From positions 1 through 32,331 of IMG/VR virus record IMGVR_UViG_3300030330_002767: DNA of 32,331 nt. One strand, written 5' to 3'. Under the pieces are notes generated by a model that was given only the letters and a program-made list of their open reading frames with translations, did no database searches and had not been told where the DNA came from. Both the position numbers and the translations under genes were made by a program. This stretch comes from a virus. Taxonomy: Duplodnaviria > Caudoviricetes. Numbering within the stretch: position 1 is the first letter of the stretch; each line of letters opens with the position of its first letter. Shown here in pieces: positions 1 to 15,032 of this stretch.

Positions 1-403
1 CGCCTCTAGGCACAGGATTAGATGTTCTAGTTTGTACTGTGCCAGTCTGTGCTATAACTGTGCCGTATGTTAGTGTCTCACAAAAATAATCATCTTGACC
101 AAATCTATCTTCTTCACTAAACAATATAGGCATAACAATAATACCTGTTTCTACTTGTCGTAAGTTTACAATTAAATCTGCTATCTTATCTCTAGACCAA
201 GGCCATTGACCATACTTCTCTATCGCTTCTTCGTCTATTGTTATGATTGTTATATCTTGTGAGGGTGATTTATCTTCGTTTGCTAAAAGAATGTCAAACG
301 ATTTTAGTCTTAAAACTTCTTTGACCCAAGGATCTTGTAGACCAATGTAAGTCATAATAAACAGCGTGATGAACGCTGTCATCCAATGTGTAAAATATTT
401 CAT
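1..403 (-). CDS. CHASE2-domain sensor protein, N-terminal part (probably a CHASE2 adenylate/guanylate cyclase); runs off the window edge
   Basis: Not in the ORF track. Manual translation from ATG 403: MKYFTHWMTAFITLFIMTYIGLQDPWVKEVLRLKSFD...ITIITIDEEAIEKYGQWPWSRDKIADLI. N-terminal TM segment plus the CHASE2 signature IDE...GxWPWxR. The catalytic domain is not visible. Confidence 0.8.
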   Translation of the reverse strand, partial: MKYFTHWMTAFITLFIMTYIGLQDPWVKEVLRLKSFDILLANEDKSPSQDITIITIDEEAIEKYGQWPWSRDKIADLIVNLRQVETGIIVMPILFSEEDRFGQDDYFCETLTYGTVIAQTGTVQTRTSNPVPRG

Positions 404-404
404 A

Positions 405-788
405 TTAAGGTTGTGTAACAGTCATTGTACAGAAAGAATGAGCACAATATAAATTACCACTATAACTTCTATTATTTCCTGTTTGTGTAATATAAATTGA
501 AGAACCATCGCTTGTTCTACCATCAACATCTATATCAATACTATGATCGTTACCAGTTTGAGAAAATGATATAATAAAATTATCCATACTAGTGATATCT
601 AAATCAATATTATTATCTTCGCCGTCTTGTATTATATCAAGATCACCGCCATCTGTGCCACCACCTATTGTTAAATCAAAATCATTACCTTCGGCATATG
701 CACTTACAAATAATACAACTGCTAATACAAATATTAGTAATACATTGTCTTTGATTATTCTAATTAAATTGTTGAATAGTAATTTCAT
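405..788 (-). CDS. Small secreted curlin-repeat-like protein (CsgB/CsgA-like)
   Basis: Signal peptide ending AYA. Repeats DIIQDGEDNNID, SFSQTGNDHSID and YITQTGNNRSY match the curlin Q-x-G-x-x-N pattern. Confidence 0.65.
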   Translation of the reverse strand: MKLLFNNLIRIIKDNVLLIFVLAVVLFVSAYAEGNDFDLTIGGGTDGGDLDIIQDGEDNNIDLDITSMDNFIISFSQTGNDHSIDIDVDGRTSDGSSIYITQTGNNRSYSGNLYCAHSFCTMTVTQP

Positions 789-1896
789 TGTCCTGCCCTA
801 ATAGTTCGAAATCGTACATTTCAAACTCATTCTGTATAATATTTAGTATATATCCATACTCTTGATCTAATCTTAATTCAATATATGCCCCACCTGCGTC
901 CTCTCTTATAAAAACCCATTGTGGTTCTTCATCTAATATTATGACACCAGTTATAGGATCTTTACCTAATGTAATACCCTCTATTGATCTTTTTTCTTCT
1001 TGTTTATCAAACTCGTTTCTCATTTGTAAAGCAAGTTCTTCATTGATTTGTTTAAGTATATCTGCTAGAAAGTTTTGTTGCAAAAAGTCTATATCTAAAC
1101 CTGTTATATATAAGTTTTCTTCTTCTTCAAGATAGTCTCTATCTAAATCATCAATCTGCAAAAAATCTATGTCTAATGCGTCTGCAACTGCTTTAATTTT
1201 TTTAACATAATTTTCATCTTCTATTTCTTTTGGTTTAGATATAATAAGCATATTGTTTATCATGTCTATTTCTAAATCTAATGTTACAGGTGGTGTAGGT
1301 GGTTTTTCTGGCACTACAACTTGTGTTGCTTGAAATGCTTGATTTAGTATTACTTGACCAGCTGCACTTTCTACTGATATTTCGCCTACAAGACAATTGC
1401 CATTTACATCACAACTTGGTAGTAGTATAATTGTAGAACCACCTAGTTCATCTATTGTCATAGAAAAATCTGTACCACGAACACCTATCGTTGCTGTAGG
1501 TGTTGTAATCTTTATATCTTGTCTTGAATTTTTTGCAATCTGTCCTGACGCATATCTGATAGTGCCTAGTTTTGCTGATAAATTTAGTTTACCTTTACCA
1601 CTATTAGGATCAAATACAAATTCATCTATGATAAGTTTACTGTGCTGTGTAACATCAACTCTGGTATCGTCAACGAATAAAATACCAACTTTACCGTTGC
1701 CTGTTTTTACTGTGTCGTATTGAAGAATGTCTAAAGATTGTTCGATAGTGATATTTTTATCACCATCTTTTCGATCAACTACGCCTTTGCCTTCTAGTTG
1801 ATCTACATTACCTATGCTACCCCATGAAGAGGTAGCACAGAATAATATTAATATTATTATTATCCACTTAGTCAGTTTGTGATATATCGATATCAT
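760..1896 (-). CDS. Secreted FecR-domain protein with acidic C-terminal extension
   Basis: Signal peptide; FecR motifs DTVKTGNG, F-x-DDT, and ITTPTATIGVRGTDF. The exact start is uncertain. Confidence 0.8.
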   Translation of the reverse strand: MISIYHKLTKWIIIILILFCATSSWGSIGNVDQLEGKGVVDRKDGDKNITIEQSLDILQYDTVKTGNGKVGILFVDDTRVDVTQHSKLIIDEFVFDPNSGKGKLNLSAKLGTIRYASGQIAKNSRQDIKITTPTATIGVRGTDFSMTIDELGGSTIILLPSCDVNGNCLVGEISVESAAGQVILNQAFQATQVVVPEKPPTPPVTLDLEIDMINNMLIISKPKEIEDENYVKKIKAVADALDIDFLQIDDLDRDYLEEEENLYITGLDIDFLQQNFLADILKQINEELALQMRNEFDKQEEKRSIEGITLGKDPITGVIILDEEPQWVFIREDAGGAYIELRLDQEYGYILNIIQNEFEMYDFELLGQDNEITIQQFN

Positions 1897-2548
1897 GGTT
1901 ATCGCCAGATGTTGTCAAGGTTATCATATTATCATAAACACCAGATTGTGTAATATCTACATCAGCTATAGATCCTGTATGACTGTGAATTAAGGTGTGT
2001 CCGTTAACATCACCATCACCATTTATGTCAATTAAGTAATTATTTGTGTCACCATTTACGGTTAGTGTTAGTATAGCAGAAGTGCCATCTATTGTAGCAG
2101 CGACTACATTTGAATCACTTCCAGATGAACCTGTTATACTTACTGTTGCGTTACTAGCGTCTGCTGTCTCACCAATATCAATATCTAAATCGTTGCTATT
2201 ACCTGCCCATATAATTGAAGCAGTAGCAGTAGCACAAGATGAATTACCACCTGTACTATCACAATTAAAATCAATATCGTTTGAGTTACCAGTTGTGCTA
2301 AATGTACCTGTGAAGGTCGCACCGTTTACATCAAACTTTAAAACATTCGAGTTACCAACTTGATCTATGTCTATTGTGGTCGTTGCGCCTGTGACCGTAG
2401 AAGCAGTAGTCGAGTTACCAACTGTGTTGTTTTGTCCGTCTTGGGTAATGTCGAGGTCAAGCGTAGCACCTGATTGTGTAACATAGATATCATTTGCAAA
2501 TACCGGCATGGCAAAAAATATCAACAATGTTATTAGTTTAGCGTACAT
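1868..2548 (-). CDS. Curlin-repeat (CsgA-like) secreted beta-solenoid protein
   Basis: Signal peptide ending VFA. Repeats DITQDGQNN, DIDQVGNSN, TTGNSNDID, AGNSNDLD, NGDTNNY, DITQSG and SGDNHDIDISQ; T/S/G/D/N-rich; directly downstream of csgG. Confidence 0.75.
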   Translation of the reverse strand: MYAKLITLLIFFAMPVFANDIYVTQSGATLDLDITQDGQNNTVGNSTTASTVTGATTTIDIDQVGNSNVLKFDVNGATFTGTFSTTGNSNDIDFNCDSTGGNSSCATATASIIWAGNSNDLDIDIGETADASNATVSITGSSGSDSNVVAATIDGTSAILTLTVNGDTNNYLIDINGDGDVNGHTLIHSHTGSIADVDITQSGVYDNMITLTTSGDNHDIDISQTD

Positions 2549-2552
2549 ACTT

Positions 2553-3374
2553 TTACTCCTCTATTTTAAATGACCATAGTCCCTTATCAATACCTTCATA
2601 AATTAAATTATGAATGGCATGTTCGATTGTAGTTCTTATGGCGTAGTTGACTGGCTCGTTTGTTGCGACACCAGTTTCTATTTCAAGCGCTTTTGTACTC
2701 ATATCTAAAAATCTGAATACATCACCGCCACTTGAAAAACTTGCGATAGTCTTTGTTGCTGACACAGTAAGAACAATCTCACCTGTCTGTACTGCAACAA
2801 GTCTTATCGAAACTGTTACTTGGTCTGTACGATATTGTTCACTCATACCTATACCAAAATATCTTGCACCTGCACCACCAGATGTTATATTTGTATCATA
2901 TCCTACAATACCACCCTCTATTATAAGTCCTGCAAACTTTAGAGGTTTTAGTTGATTCTTTACATCACTTTCACCATCATATAATTCTCTTGTTGATCTT
3001 ATAAGTTGTCTTTCTTTTACTAATGAATCTAAACCTTGTCTTTCTAAAACTATAAACCATGGATCATTACCACCTACTGATTTTAGAGCATTGATGACCC
3101 ATGCTTCAGGTCCTTGTGTCACAGCTGTAGATAATTGACTAAATTTTGTATTAGGTTTTCTTTGTCCTGTTCTATCAGGAAAATTATAAACTGCAATTGT
3201 AATCTGTGGTTGACCTAATTCAGGTATTAGTTTTAATCTTTTCATAGTATCAGTTTCCATAGTATAAGGTGTTTCACCTTGATAGAAACCCTCAGGTGGT
3301 GTGGTTGTAGCACAACCTGATAAAAAACAAAACAAGAATATTGCTGCTGCTATTTGTGGGAATGTAAAATCCAT
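2553..3374 (-). CDS. csgG: Curli production assembly/transport lipoprotein CsgG
   Basis: Lipobox LSGC; motifs AVYNFPDRTGQRKP, STAVTQG, WFIVLERQGLDSLVKERQLIR, IEGGIVGYDTN, GGAGARYFGIG, NEPV. Confidence 0.93.
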   Translation of the reverse strand: MDFTFPQIAAAIFLFCFLSGCATTTPPEGFYQGETPYTMETDTMKRLKLIPELGQPQITIAVYNFPDRTGQRKPNTKFSQLSTAVTQGPEAWVINALKSVGGNDPWFIVLERQGLDSLVKERQLIRSTRELYDGESDVKNQLKPLKFAGLIIEGGIVGYDTNITSGGAGARYFGIGMSEQYRTDQVTVSIRLVAVQTGEIVLTVSATKTIASFSSGGDVFRFLDMSTKALEIETGVATNEPVNYAIRTTIEHAIHNLIYEGIDKGLWSFKIEE

Positions 3375-3379
3375 ATTTT

Positions 3380-3850
3380 TTAAAATTTAAAGTCGCCTAC
3401 AGGCACAGACATGACCGTTGTTGAGCCATCTGGTGATGTAATTGTTAGTGTTATTATTTCTGTGGTCGTATCTTTGACCCAAGCAATTTGTGAACCTTCT
3501 ACTTCAGCAGTGCCAGATGTAGGACAAGTGCCTTCACATTCCTCGCCAAACATATTATCAACTAACTGTTTTGATAAATTAGCATAAATTCTACTCTCAA
3601 CATTTTTGATAAATTTATTGATTGTAGTATTATTTTCATCACGCTTAGCAGCTGCGTCAGCAGACTTTTGATCGTCTTTGATTTTGTTTTCTCTACTATA
3701 TCTGAGTTGCTCAAGTGATAGAACATGAGTAGAATAACCATTACCTGAAAATGATGGATTGCTGAACTCTTGTACTAATTCACTTGCGATACCAGGTGTC
3801 GAAAGCACATAACAAAATAGACCTAGCACCATAACTTTTAGTGCTTTCAT
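3380..3850 (-). CDS. csgF: Curli assembly protein CsgF-like
   Basis: Signal peptide, then SELVQEFSNPSFSGNG (CsgF N-terminal F-x-NPSF-x-G motif); immediately upstream of csgG. ATG start at 3850 chosen over the track's 3856. Confidence 0.8.
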   Translation of the reverse strand: MKALKVMVLGLFCYVLSTPGIASELVQEFSNPSFSGNGYSTHVLSLEQLRYSRENKIKDDQKSADAAAKRDENNTTINKFIKNVESRIYANLSKQLVDNMFGEECEGTCPTSGTAEVEGSQIAWVKDTTTEIITLTITSPDGSTTVMSVPVGDFKF

Positions 3851-3856
3851 GCTCAA

Positions 3857-3864
3857 TATTTATA
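3857..3864 (-). promoter_or_regulatory. T4-type late promoter TATAAATA upstream of csgF
   Basis: Exact TATAAATA on the minus strand, 6 nt before ATG 3850. Confidence 0.7.
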
Positions 3865-3985
3865 ATAAGATATAATCGAATATTACGGCTATGGTGAATA
3901 TTATAGTGAATGTCGCACCTATAATTATACCGCTAGTTGAGAGACTTTTTAGATACTCTTTTTGAACTTTTTGATTTATTTTCAT
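3860..3985 (-). CDS. 41-aa single-TM protein
   Basis: Manual: MKINQKVQKEYLKSLSTSGIIIGATFTIIFTIAVIFDYILL*; fills the gap between 3933..4211 and csgF. Confidence 0.45.
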   Translation of the reverse strand: MKINQKVQKEYLKSLSTSGIIIGATFTIIFTIAVIFDYILL

Positions 3986-4211
3986 TCTCTTTCATTTCTA
4001 AAACTGTGTTTAATTTAGACCTTAACCTGATAAGATCATTGTCAAGCATTCGTATTCTATCTAGTAAACCTATCAAAGCAGTATTTGCTTGACCTAATTT
4101 TGCCTTAATATTTTCTGTGGTAAACTTATATATGAAATATATAAAATATCCCATAGCGATAGCTGCCAATGTGGCGAACCCATACTGGTTCAGTATTTCT
4201 ATTATTGTCAT
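3933..4211 (-). CDS. Small TM + coiled-coil protein (paralog of 4215..4496)
   Basis: YGFATLAAIAMGYFIYFIY TM segment, then LDRIRMLDNDLIRL. Confidence 0.75.
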   Translation of the reverse strand: MTIIEILNQYGFATLAAIAMGYFIYFIYKFTTENIKAKLGQANTALIGLLDRIRMLDNDLIRLRSKLNTVLEMKENENKSKSSKRVSKKSLN

Positions 4212-4214
4212 TAT

Positions 4215-4496
4215 TTAATCTTTTCTTGCGTCTGTTTTACCATCTGCTCTAGCAATTCTATCTTCATCTTGTCTTAAATCTAAAGCGTCTGATATTTGAA
4301 CATCTAGTTTTATCATGTCATTGTTCATAGTTTTGATACGATTATCAAGACCCATGATAATACCATGAATACTATTTACTTGACCGATTACTGATTCTAA
4401 GATATATTTGAGAATGATATAAATGAAAAAACCCATAACTGTAGCAGATGCTACAGGTAAACCAAACTCCACTAATATTTCAAAAAACAAATTCAT
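4215..4496 (-). CDS. Small TM + coiled-coil protein (paralog of 3933..4211)
   Basis: FGLPVASATVMGFFIYIIL TM segment, then LDNRIKTMNNDMIKL; TATAAATA at 4505-4512 upstream. Confidence 0.75.
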   Translation of the reverse strand: MNLFFEILVEFGLPVASATVMGFFIYIILKYILESVIGQVNSIHGIIMGLDNRIKTMNNDMIKLDVQISDALDLRQDEDRIARADGKTDARKD

Positions 4497-4504
4497 ATAC
4501 TATC

Positions 4505-4512
4505 TATTTATA
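4505..4512 (-). promoter_or_regulatory. T4-type late promoter
   Basis: TATAAATA 8 nt before ATG 4496. Confidence 0.65.
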
Positions 4513-4564: not shown

Positions 4565-4798
4565 CTATTTCTTTGTGTATATTGAATATAAAACCCAAAT
4601 AGCAACTAAACCAACTAGTCCTTGAGCACTAAACCCAGCGATAATTGATTGTACATTACTTATTACACTTATGTCGGGCCAGAAAGGCACATTTTGTCCA
4701 CTAAATAGAACTTCAAGCACGATACCTAAAGCAATAAGTGAAACACCTACATCTGCTAATGCAGCTGCCCAACCCTTTATTTTAGTAATAATTTCCAT
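4565..4798 (-). CDS. 77-aa two-TM membrane protein
   Basis: Strong RBS AAGGAG, two hydrophobic helices; has its own late promoter and terminator. Confidence 0.8.
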   Translation of the reverse strand: MEIITKIKGWAAALADVGVSLIALGIVLEVLFSGQNVPFWPDISVISNVQSIIAGFSAQGLVGLVAIWVLYSIYTKK

Positions 4799-4853: not shown

Positions 4854-4861
4854 TATTTATA
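4854..4861 (-). promoter_or_regulatory. T4-type late promoter
   Basis: TATAAATA directly after the gp32 terminator. Confidence 0.7.
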
Positions 4862-10144: not shown

Positions 10145-10173
10145 ATTATAACAGATTTACTTGATTAAGTCAA
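10145..10173 (-). promoter_or_regulatory. Sigma70-type promoter (leaderless geometry)
   Basis: TTGACT-N17-TATAAT-N6-ATG(10138). Confidence 0.75.
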
Positions 10174-10669
10174 GCGCCATTTTAGTGGTTTCTTCAACTC
10201 GTCTAGTCCAACCTCTGCCAAAAGTTTCAAATGTAGATAAACCCTCGTAATATTCTTGTCTCATAGATTGGTATTTTTCTATTGTTTCTTCAATAGTATT
10301 TTCTTTTACATACTCATTTACTTTTGCCAAAGTCATAGGTCCAATACCACCATCTACTGTAGTGCCAATCATTCTTTGTAAGAATTTTGCTGCTCTACCT
10401 GGTCCTGCGTTTACACCAAAGTCAAATACACATAGGTCTAAACCACTAGGTAGATCATCACATTTCATTTTGCCCCAATATCTATCTATGTAAATAGGTG
10501 CAACATCAGCGACAACTAAATCTTTCATATCTTTTTTGCCACCATATTCTTCGTACACTTTTTTTGTTACGCCAAGATTTGTTTCGCCACCAGGATCTTT
10601 TGGGTGATTAACATATCCACCTTCGTGATGTAGTATTGCTTTCAAACTTGATTCTAAATTATCTTTCAT
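10157..10669 (-). CDS. Glycosyl hydrolase family 108 endolysin with peptidoglycan-binding domain
   Basis: HEGGYVNHPKDPGGETNLGVT, FDFGVNAG, DGGIGPMTL, FGRGWTRRV. Confidence 0.93.
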   Translation of the reverse strand: MKDNLESSLKAILHHEGGYVNHPKDPGGETNLGVTKKVYEEYGGKKDMKDLVVADVAPIYIDRYWGKMKCDDLPSGLDLCVFDFGVNAGPGRAAKFLQRMIGTTVDGGIGPMTLAKVNEYVKENTIEETIEKYQSMRQEYYEGLSTFETFGRGWTRRVEETTKMALDLIK

Positions 10670-14312: not shown

Positions 14313-15032
14313 CTATAACTCATATACACCTCTCAAATTATATTTAATTATTTCTTTTACTAACTCTGTATATGTGGGTTTACTAGCATATTTTGAGAGA
14401 TAGTCTGCAAGAACTAGAGCGTCATCAACACCTCTATCTCTTGCGGCTCTTAACTCTTTAAATGCCGATACATTATTTAGTATATGTAAATAGTCTATAA
14501 CACTCTCACATTTACTACTATACATTTTTACACCCCACCCAGGCCATTTAGTCCAAGGTATGGGTAGTAAATATGGTTCTTCTTTATCCCATGTTCGAAT
14601 ACCAAAAAGATTATTACCTTCATTTGCAAATCTTGATTTACCCCAACCAGTCTCTATGACTGCCTGAGCAATTATTAGTTCATTAGGTATATGATATTCT
14701 GGTTGTATATATCCATACAAATAATTAATACAACTATTTAAAGATTTTACAAACTTTTCGTTTGATGTTGTATCAACTTCTGGCAAGTTATATTCTTTTT
14801 CAACTGTTTTATGCACAGCATATTTTAGTTCTATTTCTCTGTAAGGAACTACAACTGCTTGTTTCCAGTCTTTCTCAATCTCTCTTAAATCACCTCTTAA
14901 ACTTTCATCAAAAACAGGTGTTTCAATCTCATCATAAAAATCAGGACATCCGTCATCTGTACAGTTGTATTTTTCGTTATACTTACTAATCCCAAAAGCG
15001 ATTAGAGCAATCATTAAAGTTATTTTAAACAT
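14313..15032 (-). CDS. GH73 glucosaminidase (Bax/FlgJ-like) with N-terminal membrane anchor
   Basis: IIAQAVIETGWGKSRFANEGNNLFGI, Y...LN, YA...Y. Confidence 0.85.
   Translation of the reverse strand: MFKITLMIALIAFGISKYNEKYNCTDDGCPDFYDEIETPVFDESLRGDLREIEKDWKQAVVVPYREIELKYAVHKTVEKEYNLPEVDTTSNEKFVKSLNSCINYLYGYIQPEYHIPNELIIAQAVIETGWGKSRFANEGNNLFGIRTWDKEEPYLLPIPWTKWPGWGVKMYSSKCESVIDYLHILNNVSAFKELRAARDRGVDDALVLADYLSKYASKPTYTELVKEIIKYNLRGVYEL

Follow-up and report, generated by a model that had tools for sequence, protein, structure and literature searches.

What does a phage do with curli secretion genes that stand in one run with a FecR-like gene and a CHASE2 gene? The question is raised by the IMG/VR record IMGVR_UViG_3300030330_002767, analyzed here in its entirety (32,331 nt, hereafter the window), a fragment of a T4-like phage in which gp32, gp59, a late coactivator, RNase H, and ribonucleotide reductase are present. 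At positions 1-3864 it carries a block of six open reading frames (ORFs), all on the minus strand, in the order csgF, csgG, curlin 1, FecR-like, curlin 2, and CHASE2; all are intact except CHASE2, which is cut by the contig end. A preliminary description of this DNA had read the block as a signaling device rather than a fiber system. Our analysis suggests that the device probably includes a filament, and the best-supported mechanism, to which we give a probability of roughly 0.4 on weak structural hints, is that the FecR-like protein tethers a curli-type filament, anchored in the pore, to a cyclase of the inner membrane. The features of the block are as follows.

3857..3864, minus strand: T4-type late promoter TATAAATA, directly before csgF (from the sequence and its conserved position)
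3380..3856, minus strand: CsgF-like protein, 158 aa from TTG (Pfam CsgF, E 1e-13)
2553..3374, minus strand: CsgG outer-membrane pore lipoprotein, 273 aa, lipobox LSGC (Pfam CsgG, E 9e-53)
1868..2548, minus strand: curlin 1, 226 aa, signal peptide, predicted beta-solenoid (Pfam Curlin_rpt, E 8e-5; model)
760..1896, minus strand: FecR-like exported protein, 378 aa, signal peptide (Pfam FecR, E 1e-9; model)
405..788, minus strand: curlin 2, 127 aa, short form of a variable, cysteine-capped slot (NCBIfam CsgA, E 1e-5)
<1..403, minus strand: start of the CHASE2 gene, first 134 aa, the rest beyond the contig end (Pfam CHASE2, E 4e-17)

Intergenic gaps, in block order, are 5, 4, -29, -29, and 1 nt (negative values being overlaps); coordinates, Pfam matches, and the promoter at 3857-3864 thus bear out the tight six-gene run behind a late promoter that had been described. 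A start-codon check favored the ATG at 3850 over TTG as the csgF start, and curlin 2 fell below the cut-off for Pfam Curlin_rpt (E 0.004). As the preliminary description had also said, csgC, csgD, and csgE are not visible; a Pfam scan of the 50 window ORFs gave no match to any of them. Among named phages, the closest are Pelagibacter phage HTVC008M (68% identity in CsgG, 70% in FecR) and Methylophilales phage Melnitz (53% and 47%); since both carry the same block, we infer a SAR11 host for the window phage. Wittmers et al. (2022; PMC9599517) described the same block in myo- and podophages of SAR11 and OM43, reported its expression, found it at all 65 GOV2.0 stations, and listed among its genes FecR, taken as an iron regulator, an adenylate cyclase, a further curlin, and, upstream of these, "histidine kinases." The preliminary description, which noted that csgF and csgG were known from SAR11 myophages, understated what had been in print since 2022, namely FecR and cyclase genes in the block. 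CHASE2 is not mentioned in the main text of PMC9599517, and a literature search covering few subscription journals found no paper joining CHASE2, curli, and phage. The window block is a real further member of this published cassette, which is widespread in marine phages and for whose function proposals date back to 2020, when Zaragoza-Solas and colleagues suggested "sibling capture" for its curli genes (PMC7029224); Buchholz and colleagues suggested a lysis pore in 2022 (PMC9004378). What is added here is a specific, predicted architecture of plug, thread, shaft, variable cap, and cyclase.

To follow the block through related phages, we counted partners beside csgG at the 80 best of 195 confirmed csgG loci on viral contigs (70 distinct CsgG sequences), with denominators limited to loci having enough contig room for the gene in question. 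Results showed csgF at 74/74, a curlin at 65/65, the FecR gene at 57/57, a small upstream gene at 72/72, and the cyclase gene at 11/12 loci; the single locus without a cyclase has a 5.9-kb insertion and a contig that ends at curlin 2. In a distant clade of 16 loci lacking gp32 and the late promoter, gene order was the same, and all 8 loci reaching far enough had the cyclase. The counts come from related phages and are not independent events; within that scope, the linkage of csgFG to FecR and CHASE2 genes on which the preliminary description leaned holds up. FecR-protein patterns pick out approximately 1000 viral stretches. Four seawater RNA libraries contain contigs of relatives that span portions of the block (shares <0.1, most contigs <95% alike). 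Because strand, level, and the existence of a single transcript cannot be read from contigs of this kind, they were not used as evidence. Some relatives have additional genes between the FecR gene and curlin 2: an exported SoxY-SoxZ fusion (L114:8097-8840, also L070, L079, L122, and L124) and, often and in many relatives, a basic protein of 115-165 aa of no known family (e.g., L010:4410-4772).

Relatives sharing 94-96% of the window's 134 CHASE2-gene residues encode proteins of 611 aa, in which CHASE2 is followed by a hydrophobic stretch and then by a class III cyclase domain (Guanylate_cyc). Judged by these relatives, in which alone the domain is seen, the window gene is the start of a predicted CHASE2-transmembrane-class III adenylate cyclase, and the output domain expected in the preliminary description is intact there. 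Catalytic positions, placed by alignment to CyaB (3R5G) in 46 distinct full-length proteins, read D-K-D-S-N-R-K in 42 and D-K-D-D-S-R-K in 4, with Melnitz-type cyclases being the D/S variant on re-alignment. Relatives therefore possess the class III residue set, i.e., two metal Asp, a Lys plus Asp/Thr/Ser purine pair, Asn, and Arg. We take the roles of these residues to be those of the class III rules, by which ATP would be the substrate and cyclic AMP (cAMP) the predicted product. At one locus (L147:8683-10257) the cyclase gene is in pieces, through assembly error or decay.

The FecR-like protein would connect this cyclase to the filament. It comprises an N-terminal FecR/plug-like domain (residues ~27-210), a conserved acidic linker (211-300; 24 D/E and 9 K/R), and a C-terminal beta-meander (~307-376). 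A classical FecR anti-sigma factor has a cytoplasmic N-domain and an inner-membrane helix, and its gene lies beside those for an extracytoplasmic function (ECF) sigma factor and a TonB-dependent receptor. Neither an ECF sigma factor nor a TonB receptor was found among the scanned window ORFs. Because the only hydrophobic stretch of the window protein is its signal peptide (residues 2-20), with no other membrane helix, it is not a classical anti-sigma factor, and on the same topology the iron-regulator reading was rejected. A curlin-like end, N-x-I-x-I-x-Q, occurs in 84 of 87 distinct FecR proteins and is not matched in the bacterial homologues. The first 50 mature residues gave as top fold match 5IX9 (Z 5.6, root-mean-square deviation [rmsd] 1.8, 50 aligned, 32% identity), the periplasmic plug of an ice-binding adhesin (PMC5550230), which was also the sole PDB sequence match of the FecR profile (E 0.16, weak). 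The LapA retention model NF033682 was matched by 11 of 14 bacterial FecR homologues, all below cut-off. Foldseek on the FecR model returned nothing at E up to 0.001, and an Atlas search with the C-domain gave no usable match. We also modeled a complex of curlin 1 with the FecR C-domain, a pair guessed beforehand, alongside three controls. The score was 0.59, compared to 0.00 for the best control, with runs agreeing in at least 90% of contacts and a partner predicted local distance difference test (pLDDT) of at least 62. For comparison, 116 of 157 solved pairs attain the mark, as do 2 of 215 mismatched ones; scores of 0.60 or less include only 18 of the 157 solved pairs but both mismatches reaching the mark, and the result therefore lends weak support. 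Of the interfaces anticipated among the block's proteins, this is the one to receive such weak support.

The two curlins appear to play different parts. Curlin 1 was modeled as a beta-solenoid (pLDDT 88, predicted template modeling score [pTM] 0.86) whose top structure match was CsgA (8C50; Z 19.7, rmsd 8.6, 189 aligned), with SufB/D-type solenoids a close second (Z 18.0, rmsd 2.8); Foldseek on this model found nothing at E up to 0.001. It is the most conserved gene of the block, exceeding CsgG at 27/27 loci compared (median 92% vs. 86%), and the short curlin 2 is the least conserved at 23/27 (median identity 64%). Proteins in the second slot range from ~110 to 500 aa, certain forms carrying PA14 domains, and they end in a C-terminal cysteine pair at 80 of 82 loci with FecR and cyclase genes, a count in which some contigs appear twice and both misses are one contig. 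Since curlin 1 is conserved and the second slot variable and cysteine-capped, curlin 1 is likely a conserved shaft and curlin 2 a variable tip or cap, which is why we consider a filament probable. The preliminary description's "signaling rather than fiber" is thus upheld in its cyclase output and not in its exclusion of a fiber. The QX10Q kernel, as defined in PMC10192328, occurs once in curlin 1 and is absent from curlin 2, i.e., it is not repeated through the subunit, and for that reason amyloid behavior is not assured.

Taken together, late in infection the phage would build a curli-type pore and short filament in the host envelope. CsgG and CsgF would form the outer-membrane pore; the FecR-like protein would be exported to the periplasm, where its folded N-domain would be retained in the manner of a type I adhesin plug, while the acidic linker would thread the pore and the curlin-like C-terminal end would seed curlin 1 outside. 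Curlin 1 would be the shaft. Curlin 2, which is variable, cysteine-capped, and in some forms equipped with PA14, would terminate the filament and bind a target. Binding or pull would alter the contact between the FecR-like protein and CHASE2, switching cAMP synthesis, and cAMP would tune a late decision, e.g., lysis timing, through a putative receptor. A bolder version, which we regard as a speculative long shot, is that the curli filament is pilus-like, with a FecR-fold protein at its base that passes through CsgG in the way of an adhesin plug; touch at an exchangeable tip would be relayed by mechanical means over the two membranes to the cyclase, so that the SAR11 cell gains a phage-only contact-sensing circuit whose non-canonical cAMP receptor times lysis to new hosts or particles; if true, this circuit would arise in an infected cell that usually has no cAMP system. 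The tether idea gives the block a testable job, and two cultured phages carry it.

Several observations weigh against the tether. The FecR-like model is poor overall (pLDDT 51, pTM 0.24), being confident for the C-terminal beta-meander; the 5IX9 match falls within the range of chance arrangements (Z 5.6); and the window protein gave no match to the LapA retention model at E up to 1. The score for curlin 1 with the FecR C-domain may reflect likeness of the model to solved curli stacking. We found no precedent for the threading of CsgG by a Sec-exported protein whose plug is held back, unrelated genes often sit between the FecR gene and the cyclase in relatives, and one contig lacks curlin 2. 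Finally, a cyclic nucleotide monophosphate (cNMP)-binding domain was found in only 3 of 61 host-family genomes (presumed SAR11; many incomplete) and in none of five phage records, including HTVC008M and Melnitz. A class III cyclase is present in 2 of the same 61 host-family genomes. The puzzle is thus an intact cyclase without a recognizable cAMP receptor in the phage or most host-family genomes. As no cAMP target was identified, a link of the block to lysis or superinfection is conjecture, and the proposal that the block senses phage or stress and controls lysis or superinfection found no evidence here. In two presumed SAR11-family genomes (G393 and G119), a FecR-like gene lies near a CHASE2-SpoIIE phosphatase gene (L203:5230-11335 and L213:5049-9919), a pair that is a possible target of cross-talk.

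Bacterial loci help in weighing the alternatives. The FecR N-domain was matched in 135 of 401 genomes of the class of G001 (presumed Alphaproteobacteria, the presumed host class), often in large RTX or cadherin proteins. Among 40 bacterial FecR loci, hand-picked from the best matches and counted against no background rate, 11 had a CHASE2 gene within ~9 kb and none had csgG; two Acidobacteria loci also showed the FecR-CHASE2 pairing. Conversely, 0/7 bacterial csgG loci had FecR or CHASE2 genes, and the phage block therefore joins two modules that are separate in our bacterial sample. The FecR-CHASE2 pairing speaks for the tether model, as do related arrangements that have been reported: a LysM-FecR gene adjoins a CHASE2 kinase in Burkholderia (PMC5192318), and in Sinorhizobium the outer-membrane receptor NsrA feeds CHASE2 cyclases (PMC7529298, PMC13001267). 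In a tree using 19 of 47 phage rows, phage FecR domains grouped as a single clade (99/99) whose neighbors were three CHASE2-linked bacterial proteins (97/92); because long branches meet at this join, no donor is claimed from the tree. Five close metagenome-assembled genome contigs (L083-L087) that seemed to be bacterial copies of the whole block were set aside as probably mis-binned phage DNA: L084-L087 nest in the phage clade, and the L084 contig reads as phage genes.

This separation of the halves in bacteria also suits an explanation that stays close to the tether model, though we hold it to be somewhat doubtful, in which the genes are co-transcribed but encode separate units: a curli fiber that serves aggregation, whether as "sibling capture" or as shielding, and a FecR-CHASE2 cyclase sensor in the periplasm that regulates the fiber or something else. 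Already published in outline (PMC7029224; discussion of PMC9599517), it agrees with the open beta-solenoid fold of curlin 1, most like CsgA, and with the PA14 domains on some curlin 2 forms. However, it leaves aside the conserved curlin-like end that sets the phage FecR protein apart from bacterial homologues and the position of its gene between both curlin genes; moreover, Melnitz infections showed no clumping (PMC9004378), and the single QX10Q kernel of curlin 1 fits an aggregating fiber poorly.

The pore might instead serve a sensor facing the periplasm. In this reading, curlins and FecR make up a short rod located beneath or within the pore; the rod would respond either to a molecule that has come in through ungated CsgG or to damage of the envelope, and would pass the signal to the cyclase with no extended fiber involved. 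The missing csgE gate (in the 50 window ORFs and in PMC9599517), the fixed length and very high conservation of curlin 1, as for a single-copy part, and the NsrA-CyaK precedent speak for such a rod, but the divergence and variable passenger domains of curlin 2 suit an exposed tip and the conserved glutamines at both ends of curlin 1 suit stacking, and we consider it unlikely. Least probable of all is a role of the pore as a device for lysis (pinholin- or secretin-like) or as an uptake channel, the other genes being accessory. This was put forward for Melnitz (PMC9004378) and accords with the late promoter and with two small upstream membrane proteins that, from size and hydropathy, could be holin-like. 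The Melnitz proposal, however, assumed that curlins were absent, whereas two curlin-repeat genes are annotated in the block of the Melnitz record, together with a FecR gene and a cyclase; the CsgG lipobox points to the outer membrane; and the conserved cyclase is left unexplained.

Upstream of the block lie further features that accompany it.

4505..4512, minus strand: second late promoter TATAAATA, before the small gene pair (also in 43/64 gp32-linked upstream windows)
4215..4496, minus strand: small protein paralogue 1, 93 aa, membrane/coiled-coil (PHROG 18771)
3933..4211, minus strand: small protein paralogue 2, 92 aa, predicted membrane/coiled-coil (PHROG 18771)

The preliminary list of six genes is correct as such and omitted these two paralogues (3933-4496; 31% identical), which accompany the block in relatives even where they are moved or inverted. 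By position, they are probably the published "histidine kinases." That reading was rejected, as no kinase family was matched by 32 members at E up to 1, the top His share of any column was 47% and 6%, and HisKA/HATPase features were absent. Paralogue 1 gave a weak YvrJ lead (Atlas 0.88; 1/32 members at E 0.1), and a small-gene profile search of 401 genomes matched only the phage contig among them. The TATAAATA motif is not above chance in number on the window minus strand (6 vs. 6.7 expected from base composition), but its placement is above chance. It precedes csgF in 58/68 distinct upstream windows of gp32-linked relatives and was not found before the inner genes (csgG 0/72, curlin 1 0/63, FecR 0/54, cyclase 0/30). 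In the window (3850-3864), the likely csgF start is 7 nt behind the promoter, and the mRNA would therefore be nearly leaderless. At 4565-4798 lies a gene for 77 aa with two hydrophobic helices; a late promoter of its own stands at 4854-4861, and the gene occurs in some relatives only. Elsewhere the window encodes two peptidoglycan hydrolases, GH108 (10157-10669) and a glucosaminidase (14313-15032). A Brevundimonas phage, Kabachok (ON529852; L266:4285-6890), has a CsgG-like gene matching the holdfast anchor HfaB (E 6e-70, below cut-off), with a small exported protein before it and an HfaD-like gene after it (E 1e-7); this hfaA/B/D-like block contains neither FecR nor a cyclase.

Compared with known systems, the window block has the same genes in the same order as the pelagiphage type VIII secretion system region (PMC9599517; HTVC008M gp011-gp019; Melnitz genes 97-104), likewise without CsgC/D/E; there is no structural difference, and the window copy has a short curlin 2. 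With bacterial curli (CsgA/B/E/F/G) it shares CsgG and CsgF homologues and signal-peptide beta-solenoid subunits, but it lacks CsgE/C/D, its repeats are degenerate, its second subunit is variable and cysteine-capped, and its operon includes the FecR-like and cyclase genes seen at none of the seven bacterial csgG loci. The Sinorhizobium NsrA-CyaK/CyaD1/CyaD2-Clr system similarly feeds outer-membrane input to inner-membrane CHASE2 cyclases, although there the input is a beta-barrel receptor rather than a CsgG pore with curlins, and no counterpart of its CRP-like receptor was found in the phage or most host-family genomes. Type I adhesins (MpIBP RIN, 5IX9; LapA) depend on type I secretion, TolC, and RTX repeats, whereas the phage protein has a Sec signal peptide, CsgG, and no RTX repeats; the two are alike in a weak fold and sequence resemblance of the first 50-70 mature FecR residues to the retention module, below family cut-offs, and would share a layout of plug, linker, and outer domain.

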